Program-made: the position numbers and the translations under genes
Shown: piece after piece, positions 31,192 through 33,057 of the stretch
Layout: each line of letters begins with the position of its first letter
Numbering within the stretch: the stretch's first letter is position 1
Origin: Halieaceae bacterium
GTDB taxonomy: Bacteria > Pseudomonadota > Gammaproteobacteria > Pseudomonadales > Halieaceae
Direction: 5' to 3'
Assembly (NCBI GenBank): GCA_963921335.3
Contig: CAWUFC020000002.1
Coordinates: 882,120-946,119 of the forward strand
Length of the DNA stretch: 64,000 nucleotides
Notes under the pieces: model-generated
What the model was told of the DNA's origin: nothing
What the model saw: the letters and a program-made list of their open reading frames with translations, nothing else
Database searches by the model: none

Positions 31192-31200
31192 AATAGCGAC

Positions 31201-33057
31201 CTACCCCTCTGCAGAAGCTCCGTTTGAATCAGTAAGGGTATATTCCACCAGCTCGACACCAGGCTCGCCACCGGCAACAAATTCTATGCTTGAGCCACTC
31301 GCATCAACGGACAATGAACCGAGCGCAGAAGCGCCAACGTCAGTGATACTGACAGCATCGCCATCCACATCGCTATCATTCGCCAGAACATCCAAGGTAA
31401 GTGTGGCGGACGCTGGTACCAGATACTGATCGGCCTGAGCGTCAGGCGCATCATTTTGACCTGCTACCTCAATCGTAACGGGTTGATTCGTGACTGCACC
31501 CTGATCATCGATGACCTGCACAATGACTTCATCGAAGGCCACCCCACCAGCAGGAATGGCGAGAATAGCCTCAGAGTCTATATTCAGCTCGTAATTCCAT
31601 GCGCCATCAGCATCTACGGTCAATTCACCATATAAACCGACACCGCCGTCAGCAACGCCCCAACTGGCCACACTGGCCCCCGCGTCAACATCACTGGCTA
31701 CAAGCTGACCACTTGCAAGTGCTACGTCCAGAATGGAAACTGCGCCACCAATATCACCAGATACGGTCGGCGCATCATTACTGCCGGTTATGGTGATCAG
31801 TACTTCGGCCTGACTGGTATCACCATCAGCATCTTCCAACTGGTAGACAAAACGGTCTTCTGCCGTCTGGCCTTGGGCGAGAGACTGGTAATAATCACCG
31901 GCAGAGTATTCAAAGTTGCCACTTGTAAGCAGTGTCAATTGACCATTGGGCGCAGTCACCAGCGTTACATTACTGAGTAGATCTGGAATCGAGTCGTCGC
32001 CGTTCCCGTTGTCAGCCAACAAATTACCCAAATAGCGCTGATCTTCATCGAGAGCCAGCTCATCATCGGCCGCGACTACCGGCTCATCAACGGGGTCAAT
32101 GCTCTCGCTATCCACAAGCACCGCCAGCTGTTCAAACCCGGCAGCACGTAAATCGAACGCATTGAACTCGAATACTTCTTGACCCGCCTCGCCTCCACCT
32201 GCAGTCTGCGCGTCGAGAAACTGTAAATAGTCTGCCACGTCGGACTGTAAAACCGGGTCGAGCCACTCATCGAGCGTGAGATAAAGTTCCAGTGTGTCTA
32301 CGCCAGCCTCGCCAGCGTAGATATCAGCAGCTCCCACATTGATAGCGGGCTGATATCGCGCTAAATCGTCGCCAGCGCCCGCATACAATTCGTCGCTGCC
32401 AGCTCCACCAGAAAGATAATCATTGTCGCCTGCCCGGTCTTCCTTCTTTCCGCCGGAGCCCTTGCCGCTGCCGGAACCCTTGCCACTGCCAGAGCCTTTG
32501 CCACTGCCAGAGCCTTTGCCACTGCCAGAGCCTTTGCCACTACCGGAGCCCTTGGCTGGCTTATCGGGGAATTGGCCACCGTAGAGCACATCATCGCCAT
32601 CTCCACCGATTAGTTCATCATCACCTAAACCACCAACAACCAGATCGTTACCAGCTCCACCATCTAGATAGTCATCGCCGCTATTCGAGGCTTTTGCGCC
32701 AGAGCCACTGCCCTGCTTAAGCCAGTTCTCCCAGCCAGATTTTTTACCGCTGCCGCCATGTTTACGCCATGCCTTACCGGACCCGGAACCTGTGAGCGCG
32801 CCATCGCCAAACAGAGTGTCTTCACCCATACCGCCATACAGGGTGTCAGAACCACTCTCTCCCACCAACAGATCATTACCATCCTCGCCATAGAGGCGGT
32901 CGAAGCCTTTGTTACCGGCCAGTAAATCTGCGCTGGGGCCACCACTTATATGGTCATCGCCTTTGCGACCATCAATAAAATCCAGACCATTTCCACCCAG
33001 CAGCGTGTCATCACCGTTGGTGGGCTTATTGTTCTTGTTAGCTTTATTCTTGGACAT
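31201..33057 (-). CDS. giant RTX protein 2, N-terminal segment (RTX repeats, (GSGSGK)n, VCBS/cadherin-like modules)
   Basis: I place the start at MSKNKANKNNK (ATG 33057), with GGGAG 5 nt upstream. The segment contains RTX nonapeptides, a GSGSGK x5 tract, and ITGSNDAPTVSG / VAGQNDAPDA module ends. It stops at an in-frame TAG. Confidence 0.8.
   Translation of the reverse strand: MSKNKANKNNKPTNGDDTLLGGNGLDFIDGRKGDDHISGGPSADLLAGNKGFDRLYGEDGNDLLVGESGSDTLYGGMGEDTLFGDGALTGSGSGKAWRKHGGSGKKSGWENWLKQGSGSGAKASNSGDDYLDGGAGNDLVVGGLGDDELIGGDGDDVLYGGQFPDKPAKGSGSGKGSGSGKGSGSGKGSGSGKGSGSGKGSGGKKEDRAGDNDYLSGGAGSDELYAGAGDDLARYQPAINVGAADIYAGEAGVDTLELYLTLDEWLDPVLQSDVADYLQFLDAQTAGGGEAGQEVFEFNAFDLRAAGFEQLAVLVDSESIDPVDEPVVAADDELALDEDQRYLGNLLADNGNGDDSIPDLLSNVTLVTAPNGQLTLLTSGNFEYSAGDYYQSLAQGQTAEDRFVYQLEDADGDTSQAEVLITITGSNDAPTVSGDIGGAVSILDVALASGQLVASDVDAGASVASWGVADGGVGLYGELTVDADGAWNYELNIDSEAILAIPAGGVAFDEVIVQVIDDQGAVTNQPVTIEVAGQNDAPDAQADQYLVPASATLTLDVLANDSDVDGDAVSITDVGASALGSLSVDASGSSIEFVAGGEPGVELVEYTLTDSNGASAEG
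32464..32553 (-). repeat. 18-nt in-frame tandem repeat x5 (three identical copies) encoding (GSGSGK)n
   Basis: The plus-strand unit gccactgccagagccttt is repeated perfectly at 32482-32499, 32500-32517 and 32518-32535. One variant unit flanks each side. Confidence 0.9.

Follow-up and report, generated by a model that had tools for sequence, protein, structure and literature searches.

Two in-frame amber codons in a shared 9-mer within giant RTX-type adhesin genes of an uncultured marine Halieaceae bacterium

In an uncultured marine bacterium of the Halieaceae, two giant adhesin genes each contain a TAG codon that interrupts an otherwise continuous reading frame, and both of these codons lie within the same 9-mer, GAGGGGTAG. 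The question raised by this locus is whether this shared context reflects a sequencing artefact, a mutational hotspot, a recoding event, or coincidence. The region analysed here, referred to as the window, is a stretch of 64,000 nt from contig CAWUFC020000002.1, in which the 9-mer is present in exactly 2 copies (positions 7570–7578 and 31201–31209, both on the minus strand), and each copy introduces one TAG into the frame of a giant RTX-type adhesin gene, at a point that encodes part of an Ig/cadherin-like domain. In our assessment, the two TAGs are probably, though with considerable room for doubt, real nonsense substitutions (CAG or GAG to TAG) that occurred beside G runs in genes that were already dead or switched off.

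The two adhesin genes and the context of their amber codons

Adhesin 1 is encoded on the minus strand (1848–13199; ~3,784 codons, as delimited by translation, Pfam matches, and alignment of its modules) and consists of DUF4214 units, ~20 cadherin/Ig-like modules, and a C-terminal RTX block. Its amber codon (7572–7570) is located within a ~100 aa repeat module and is flanked by ORFs in the same frame (7570–8409 and 5944–7500); the minus strand from 7581 to 7567 reads GTC GAG GGG TAG TCC, and the context described in the original prediction is thus found in the sequence. In an alignment of 15 adhesin 1 modules, the column that contains the stop is occupied in the sister modules by E (6), Q (4), S, D, R, or V and shows no gap. 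Hence, the TAG at 7570 is a substitution from GAG or CAG, and its origin as a 3-nt insertion was rejected because a residue is present in this column in every sister module.

Adhesin 2, which is also encoded on the minus strand (24476–33084; ~2,869 codons, from translation and Pfam matches), comprises RTX repeats, a (GSGSGK)n tract, cadherin/Ig-like modules, a long RTX block, cadherin domains, and DUF642, and its Pfam matches are to HemolysinCabind, Cadherin_4, Big_9, Cadherin, and DUF642. The TAG in this gene (31203–31201) is codon 628. As had been noted previously, the ORFs 31201–33084 and 29458–31191 are in one frame and are separated by this single TAG, and the sequence agrees with the reported context, the minus strand from 31212 to 31189 reading GCA GAG GGG TAG GTC GCT ATT TTG. 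When the stop is read as X, Big_9 spans residues 544–631 (profile positions 1–88 of 89) and Cadherin_5 spans residues 544–633, so that the stop falls within the final strand of an Ig-like domain.

The presence of RTX nonapeptide repeats together with tandem Ig/cadherin-like modules assigns the adhesins to the RTX-type T1SS class; HemolysinCabind is matched at 3e-52 to 5e-60, and matches to Cadherin_4, Big_9, Cadherin_5, and Cadherin are also found. No T1SS ABC transporter is present among the window ORFs that were scanned, in which the sole MFP is part of a TetR-AcrAB operon. Searches of 185,579 species genomes, 5.8 billion proteins, and JGI metagenomes have identified no relatives above 34–42% identity (best values of 34% for genome contigs and 42% for the 5.8 billion proteins, with just two weak partial matches in the JGI metagenomes) and no intact orthologue or allele showing the ancestral codon. 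Exact-protein look-ups for three neighbouring genes returned no record, and synteny with the nearest Halieaceae MAGs is limited to the TetR-MFP-AcrB operon, without an adjoining adhesin.

The sharing of the 9-mer, which was spotted post hoc, is a real and statistically unusual coincidence of context. The expectation from shuffled sequences is 0.20 copies in the window vs. the 2 that are seen, and none of 100 shuffles reached 2. Within the two adhesin genes, 800 codons are one substitution away from TAG; 2% of them are preceded by GGG and 2 of the 800 by GAGGGG, both of the latter being the TAGs themselves, and the chance of a hexamer being common to two random positions of this kind is ~2e-3. 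The earlier claim that two nonsense sites with six common upstream bases are improbable by chance is borne out by these values. The sequence GAGGGG[A/C/G]AG is absent from both strands of the window, in which 8 GGGGCAG and 6 GGGGGAG sites are unchanged. Gene conversion between the two TAG sites was rejected, the common stretch being only 9 nt long.

Further lesions in the adhesin genes and in the window

Adhesin 1 is broken at three places, viz. by frameshifts at 8469–8474 and 5989–5994 and by the TAG at 7570–7572. The first break, which was located by module alignment and is identical in both sequencing runs described below, ends in GGGTAG (8469–8474, minus strand). The original prediction had grouped it with the two amber codons; it does read GCC GGG TAG, but it is a frameshift (loss of one G) and not a substitution. 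A GGGG at 8469 would keep the module length exactly (25 residues after FxY), giving ..TAG followed by VEDREATLRVYGENDPP; with one G missing from GGGG-TAG, a TAG that was out of frame comes into frame. The return to the first frame is found at a G6 run (5989–5994, minus strand; module alignment, identical in both runs), where the removal of one G yields DGGGGSYPQT, similar to sister modules such as DGEGGVVPQT. In adhesin 2, the TAG at 31201 is accompanied by a frameshift in a G7 run (29475–29481, minus strand; same in both runs), in which the addition of one G restores the regular GGxGxD nonapeptide (EGGGGNDRLIGDSGDD). Each of the two adhesin genes thus carries more than one independent disabling lesion, as a pseudogene would, and the frameshifts at 8469, 5989, and 29475 beside the TAGs argue that these genes are dead.

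Lesions are also found elsewhere in the window. A gene for a PSCyt/PSD-like lipoprotein changes frame at a GGG (16881–16883, plus strand; three-frame translation, same in both runs), a split that is based on frame continuity only, the continuation ORF being without a Pfam match, and a nearby Rieske gene is damaged as well. Four damaged genes among ~45 is a high load for a free-living member of the Halieaceae and counts against a reading of real decay. All of the frame breaks in the window are located at G or C runs. The adhesins hold 5 of the 7 disruptive lesions, and an enrichment of G runs was rejected as the cause of this clustering, since the adhesins contain 28% of the runs vs. 31% of the length. 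A common lesion motif, GGGTRG, fits 3 of 4 indels (p = 5.5e-4) and was dropped because it was chosen post hoc and because the long G runs of Gly-rich genes naturally precede TGG (GGG GGT GGN). Lastly, the window has CC at 63436–63439 (plus strand) where both runs have CCC, and an extra C at 63437 gives a continuous sulfatase ORF that extends from a signal peptide through PNVILILADDLGWNDL; the frameshift reported earlier for this sulfatase gene is an assembly error at a different position.

Sequencing evidence and the competing explanations

The window was compared with Logan contigs from two public runs (X1 and X2), which represent two samples from the same study and platform and are possibly the source of the assembly; a search for RNA runs returned none. 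The contigs of both runs show 0 differences from the window across both adhesins. They are at variance with the window at 63437, and at 49547 the two runs disagree, X2 being without an A (a homopolymer error); therefore, the contigs are not mere copies of the window. No alternative contig at either TAG is present in X1 or X2 down to 80% likeness, the search being of contigs, which drop minority paths and in which the strands are not separated. Coverage is low (word depths of ~9 and ~6 in the two runs). Unitigs at a word depth of exactly 2 are 152–551 nt long and break at short G/C/A runs, with ~4 breaks in ~3 kb of read sequence, and contigs of 57–83 kb are present at a depth of 6–9. The lengths of the depth-2 unitigs imply a read error of ~0.1–0.3%, and the reads look long and accurate, the platform being inferred from the pattern of unitigs and contigs. 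Between the runs, six lesions are concordant and 1–2 sites are discordant, which argues against stochastic consensus errors, for which the opposite ratio would be expected.

A context-specific consensus error of long reads is a possible, though doubtful, source of the two TAGs. The true plus strand would then be CTGCCCCTC (or CTCCCCCTC), at which the caller systematically writes A, possibly by way of a DNA modification; neither gene would be interrupted at these codons, and the frameshifts at G runs, in part or altogether, would likewise be errors. An identical 9-mer at both sites is the expected output of a k-mer-dependent caller, and the only two copies of GAGGGGNAG in the window both read T, with no unconverted copy left. 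If the codon were CAG, the error would be a plus-strand G>A, the dominant systematic nanopore substitution. At some methylated sites, nanopore G>A errors can affect >50% of reads and resemble SNPs (10.64898/2026.01.14.699587; 10.1101/2024.01.12.575342); methylation-linked nanopore errors are usually strand-biased and near 50% (10.64898/2026.01.14.699587). Homopolymer errors do occur in these data, as seen from the C missing from the window at 63437, the A missing from X2 at 49547, and the breaks of the depth-2 unitigs; depth is low and the frame breaks are all at G/C runs. A total of ~9 lesions per 64 kb resembles low-coverage long-read MAGs. The proven homopolymer error and the long-read-like runs thus lend some credit to the base-calling error raised in the original prediction; against it, the assembly and two independent read sets all have T at both sites. 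Simplex nanopore reads from 2023 would have a higher read error than the one estimated here, which is closer to that of HiFi reads, for which we know of no such substitution errors. In addition, the frameshifts in G3–G6 runs are without a longer common motif and hundreds of equal runs are read correctly, and the concordant lesions greatly outnumber the discordant sites. The missing G/C allele is weak evidence either way, as Logan contigs drop minority paths.

Programmed recoding, in which GAG-GGG-UAG would be a leaky stop, permitting either read-through by a near-cognate tRNA or a suppressor tRNA or else re-initiation, so that a little full-length adhesin or two cooperating fragments are made, is very improbable. 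The occurrence of the same 9-mer at two independent stops and the open downstream frames of 577 and ~526 codons are in keeping with it, as are the Shine-Dalgarno-like GAGGGG and the TTG start of the downstream ORF 9 nt past the TAG at 31201; this arrangement, which had been suggested previously, holds at 31201 but is absent at 7570, where 69 nt separate the stop from the nearest in-frame ATG/GTG/TTG downstream, at 7500. An acidic residue at position −2 and the identity of the last residue reportedly weaken termination in E. coli (work of Mottagui-Tabar, Bjornsson and Isaksson in the 1990s). If the acidic −2 residue, a Gly-tRNA in the P site, and an anti-Shine-Dalgarno pause were to weaken the action of release factor 1, a few ribosomes would insert Gln, Glu, or Tyr, only ambers in such a context would survive in adhesins that are still useful, and the G-run breaks would be errors or switches; we regard this account, too, as having very little chance of being correct. 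Ordinary genes of the window end in TAG more often than in either other stop (13 TAG, 11 TGA, and 10 TAA among 34 intact ORFs), so that a reassignment is not indicated, the 94 nt after each TAG fold no better than shuffled sequences (z = +1.3 and +0.8; range +0.8 to +1.8), and no flank is shared by the two TAG sites beyond the 9-mer. Both stops fall within a beta-sandwich module, so that the fragments would be unfolded, the N-terminal ones being without the C-terminal secretion region, and the frameshifts in both genes would defeat read-through. On these grounds, the read-through and re-initiation options are not supported. Frameshifting at G GGG UAG was rejected as well: the +1 and −1 frames reach stops within ~12 codons, the −1 slip favoured by G GGG leading to a stop after 12 codons. 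Phase-variable switching, by which the G-run frameshifts, above all G7/G8 at 29475, would be reversible slipped-strand switches in a population that is OFF, with the TAGs as secondary hits acquired while OFF, is an unlikely explanation. Poly-G tracts in adhesin genes are a classical substrate of phase variation (Neisseria, Haemophilus, Campylobacter), +/−1 changes in G runs account for 3 of the 5 adhesin lesions, and every piece of the adhesins is still a long open frame. However, known switches have tracts of ~7 or more, a length that G7 at 29475 reaches but that 8469 (G3) and 5989 (G6) do not clearly reach; the latter two, at G3/G4 and G5/G6, are very short. No variation in the length of the adhesin G tracts is seen in the contigs of either run, which would hide minority variants, and a nonsense codon is not usefully reversible, so that slippage alone could not re-activate the genes.

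For the nonsense mutations that we favour, we infer the original codon, the mutational mechanism, and the loss of function, as we do the accuracy of the reads. Each TAG would be a single-base change in the DNA, the original codon being CAG (Gln) or GAG (Glu), and would belong to a wider set of lesions of the replication-error type (+/−1 in G/C runs and point changes adjoining a G run) that may have built up in four or more of the window's genes (three in adhesin 1, two in adhesin 2, and those in the PSCyt-like and Rieske genes). The sharing of the 9-mer would be due partly to mutational context, the altered base being directly 3' of a G4 run, while the remaining shared bases (GA) would be chance; if the codon was CAG, the change would be a C>T in a G-C-N context, the classic signature of mismatch-repair escape. 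Lines deficient in mismatch repair acquire mostly 1-bp homopolymer indels, with an excess of C>T changes at GCN and a clustering of substitutions at the junctions of repeats (PMC5932607). Translation would stop at the TAGs without read-through, leaving N-terminal fragments that lack the C-terminal secretion region, and the giant type-1-secretion-style adhesins would no longer be made full-length in the sampled population. The hotspot and the coincidence listed separately in the original prediction together make up this best explanation, which draws on the adjacency of G runs and on the frameshifts in the same genes; against it, a hotspot accounts for GGGG and the 5' G but not for the whole 9-mer, and the GGGGCAG and GGGGGAG sites of the window have stayed unchanged. 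All of the pieces are still long open frames, hence any decay would be very recent.

If the stops are real, they represent the routine loss of two dispensable giant adhesins in an uncultured marine gammaproteobacterium, and the mutation spectrum hints at replication-slippage or mismatch-repair-escape errors. Caution is called for, as a base-calling artefact explains equally well why two lesions of a low-coverage long-read MAG share a k-mer, and one frameshift in the window, that of the sulfatase gene, turned out to be an assembly error. The locus would be of wider interest only if the unlikely read-through were true; to our knowledge, there is hardly any documentation of amber read-through programmed by context in chromosomal genes of bacteria.

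Comparison with known systems

The +1 frameshift of prfB (RF2; AGG GGG UAU CUU UGA) resembles the present sites in having a G-rich, Shine-Dalgarno-like element just 5' of an in-frame stop. In prfB, however, the Shine-Dalgarno element is 3 nt before the slippery CUU and a +1 shift follows, whereas here the stop comes directly after GGG and the continuation is in frame. A single in-frame stop followed by a long open frame is likewise shared with programmed UAG read-through (MuLV gag-pol; Q-beta A1 uses UGA), but the adhesin stops, unlike those of the MuLV type, are without a 3' pseudoknot or conserved context, lie inside domains, and are found in genes that are also frameshifted. The amber hotspots of lacI, which Coulondre and Miller are said to have located in 1978 at 5-methylcytosine (CCAGG to CTAGG), provide a case of CAG>TAG recurring in a fixed context, where C>T makes an amber codon; no CCWGG is present here (contexts GCAGG and GCAGT), and the ancestral codon may be GAG. 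The signature of mismatch-repair escape (PMC5932607) is similar in its +/−1 breaks at G/C runs and in the putative C>T in G-C-A after G4, but it has been defined in C. elegans, yeast, and tumours, and only ~8 events are available here. Nanopore methylation errors (10.64898/2026.01.14.699587) share with the two TAGs the same base change at the same k-mer and a SNP-like appearance, G>A being the leading class on R10; they differ in usually being strand-biased and affecting some motif copies only, whereas here the runs and the assembly agree and the read accuracy looks too high. The remaining comparison is with pseudogenised giant repeat adhesins (RTX/Bap/cadherin-like T1SS substrates). In contrast to ordinary decay of such genes, two nonsense codons here share a 9-mer and no intact allele or orthologue was found (best identities of 34–42%). 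In common with them, the present genes are long and repetitive and carry several independent small lesions, consisting of 1-bp homopolymer indels and single nonsense substitutions, while neighbouring housekeeping and catabolic genes are intact.

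The adhesin genes and their in-frame TAG codons

Both TAG codons lie in minus-strand genes whose translations and Pfam matches identify the products as giant secreted proteins built of repeats. Adhesin 1 (13199 to 1848; ~3,784 codons) consists of DUF4214 units, ~20 cadherin/Ig-like modules of ~100 aa and a C-terminal RTX block, and adhesin 2 (33084 to 24476; ~2,869 codons) of RTX repeats, a (GSGSGK)n tract, cadherin-like modules, ~1,000 residues of RTX nonapeptides, cadherin domains and a DUF642 domain. No orthologue of greater than 42% identity was found among 185,579 species genomes, 5.8 billion proteins and the JGI metagenomes.

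In adhesin 2, the minus strand at 31212-31189 reads GCA GAG GGG TAG GTC GCT ATT TTG, and this one TAG (31203-31201) separates two ORFs in the same frame (31201..33084 and 29458..31191). The copy in adhesin 1 (7581-7567; GTC GAG GGG TAG TCC) is likewise flanked by same-frame ORFs (7570..8409 and 5944..7500). When the stop in adhesin 2 is read as X, a Pfam Big_9 match spans residues 544-631 (profile 1-88 of 89) and crosses codon 628, and the TAG is therefore located in the last beta-strand of the domain. In adhesin 1, the stop column holds a residue in every row of a 15-module alignment (E in six, Q in four, then S, D, R and V), which rules out insertion of the TAG, since the sister modules all fill this column. 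From the Big_9 span and this gap-free column, both TAGs are predicted to be single-base substitutions from GAG or CAG rather than insertions, and a protein ending or restarting at either of them would be cut within a fold.

The arithmetic and sequence contexts given in the original prediction were all correct on rechecking, and its claim that a context shared by two stops is unlikely by chance is borne out. The 9-mer GAGGGGTAG occurs at only two places in the window (shuffle mean 0.2; none of 100 shuffles reached 2), and GAGGGG[A/C/G]AG is absent from the whole window. The two adhesin genes together contain 800 codons one substitution away from TAG; GGG precedes 2% of these and GAGGGG only two, both being the TAGs themselves, and the probability of a hexamer match between two random positions of this kind is ~2e-3. 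On these counts the sharing of the 9-mer is unusual, though the pattern was spotted post hoc. Comparison of the flanks revealed no common sequence past the nine bases. Two further AGGGGTAG octamers are present, at 14418-14425 (plus; the Shine-Dalgarno region of a PSCyt-like gene) and 1598-1605 (minus), and AGGGGGAG is absent from the entire window.

Neighbouring lesions, read sets and genome setting

Other lesions are found in the same genes (all minus strand). Adhesin 1 changes frame at 8469 (GCC GGG TAG), where one added G gives ..TAG|VEDREATLRVYGENDPP with the module length exact, and returns to frame at a G6 run (5989-5994), where removal of one G gives DGGGGSYPQT. In adhesin 2, the frame breaks at a G7 run (29475-29481), and one added G there yields a perfect RTX nonapeptide. 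On the plus strand, the gene for a PSCyt/PSD-like (planctomycete-type) haem lipoprotein (14427-17569) changes frame at GGG 16881-16883, a break reproduced in both sequencing runs described below, and its 228-aa continuation has no Pfam match. A KshA-like Rieske oxygenase gene (18880-19821, plus) lacks a start codon; it follows the DUF1501 stop directly and in frame, with no ATG, GTG or TTG ahead of the domain, and carries YPH in place of the family's CPH, the first cluster-ligand motif. Lengthening the CCCC run at 18892-18895 by one C would give this gene a TTG-initiated N-terminus. The remaining scanned ORFs of the window all appear full-length.

Two public runs (X1 and X2) from two samples of one study cover the region and were compared as Logan contigs. 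Over 1500-34000, which spans all five adhesin lesions and the PSCyt-like break, the contigs of both runs show no difference from the window, and no alternative contig was found at either TAG in the two runs, at contig level and down to 80% likeness. These contigs are not mere copies of the window, because both runs have CCC where the window has CC (63436-63439; position 63437) and X2 has A4 at 49547. The CC is a true assembly error; with the added C, a sulfatase gene reads as one unbroken ORF that runs on from the signal peptide into PNVILILADDLGWNDL. A C7 run (63499-63505) was rejected as the cause of this frameshift, since the C at 63437 alone restores the ORF. The A4 of X2 (49543-49547; A5 in the window and X1), within an otherwise intact short-chain dehydrogenase gene, reflects an error of the read set or else a frameshift polymorphism in the X2 sample. 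X2 also shows a single G>A difference at 41963 and is almost without contig cover over 41130-45498 (katG and thiolase region), with depth-2 unitigs only and none over 42215-44910. X1 runs through the whole interval without a gap. Either coverage fails here in X2, or the segment is diverged or absent in its sample. The copy number of the (GSGSGK)n coding tandem repeat (32494-32541, minus) is the least certain part of adhesin 2, because in either run the k=31 contigs break there, at the same spot.

Unitigs of 152-551 nt have a word depth of exactly 2 and contigs of 57-83 kb a depth of 6-9, the discordances are indels only, and breaks fall at short homopolymers; these features indicate that both runs are long reads. 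About 4 breaks in ~3 kb of read sequence correspond to ~0.1-0.3% error, from which we infer HiFi-like accuracy, above that of 2023 simplex nanopore reads. Six lesions are concordant between the runs vs. one or two discordant sites; random consensus errors are disfavoured, because many discordant sites would be expected, and such errors common to both read sets at G3-G6 runs appear negligible for reads of this accuracy, an argument rather than a proof.

The AcrB of this uncultured member of the Halieaceae is 75–77% identical to those of Halieaceae and Halioglobus MAGs, with which synteny is confined to the TetR-MFP-AcrB operon. An IlvD/Edd-family dehydratase gene (22706-24388, minus) is nearest to Burkholderiales genomes (77–82% aa identity), whereas the AcrB operon is nearest to Halieaceae, and it may encode a horizontally acquired sugar-acid dehydratase. 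Stop usage in 34 intact ORFs (13 TAG, 11 TGA and 10 TAA) shows a TAG share unusually high for a gammaproteobacterium of 54% G+C.

Origin of the TAG codons

The main alternative, that a k-mer-specific consensus error wrote the TAGs, is possible but less likely than real mutation. An identical 9-mer at both sites is what such an error predicts, homopolymer errors are present in these data, and systematic nanopore G>A errors are known at some methylated sites, where they can affect >50% of reads and resemble SNPs (10.64898/2026.01.14.699587; 10.1101/2024.01.12.575342). However, both read sets concur at the TAGs, the reads appear too accurate, and nanopore errors of that kind are usually strand-biased. 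Phase-variable switching via the G tracts of the adhesins is unlikely. The option of deliberate read-through or termination-reinitiation, also raised in the original prediction, is very improbable: TAG is an ordinary terminator here and the most frequent stop (13 of 34 intact genes), the 94 nt of RNA that follow each TAG fold no better than shuffles, and a start codon lies 9 nt past TAG 31201 vs. 69 nt past TAG 7570. Moreover, the C-terminal RTX region would be missing from the N-terminal fragments, +1 and -1 slips at G GGG UAG both reach a stop within ~12 codons, and the frameshifts elsewhere in both genes would defeat a full-length product.

Both TAGs are confirmed in the sequence, and the underlying biology is probably ordinary. 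The explanation to which we lean, with modest confidence, is that both are genuine nonsense substitutions and that the two adhesin genes carrying them are, in this population, either dead or switched off. The two TAGs would then belong to a set of replication-error-type lesions, and an ancestral CAG codon would imply C>T in a G-C-A context immediately 3' of a G4 run. A mismatch-repair-type context would explain the GGGG and the 5' G of the 9-mer, with its other two bases due to chance. In mismatch-repair-defective lines, 1-bp homopolymer indels are dominant, C>T changes are enriched at GCN, and substitutions cluster at repeat junctions (PMC5932607); given an ancestral CAG, the lesions of the window would match these lines in all three features.
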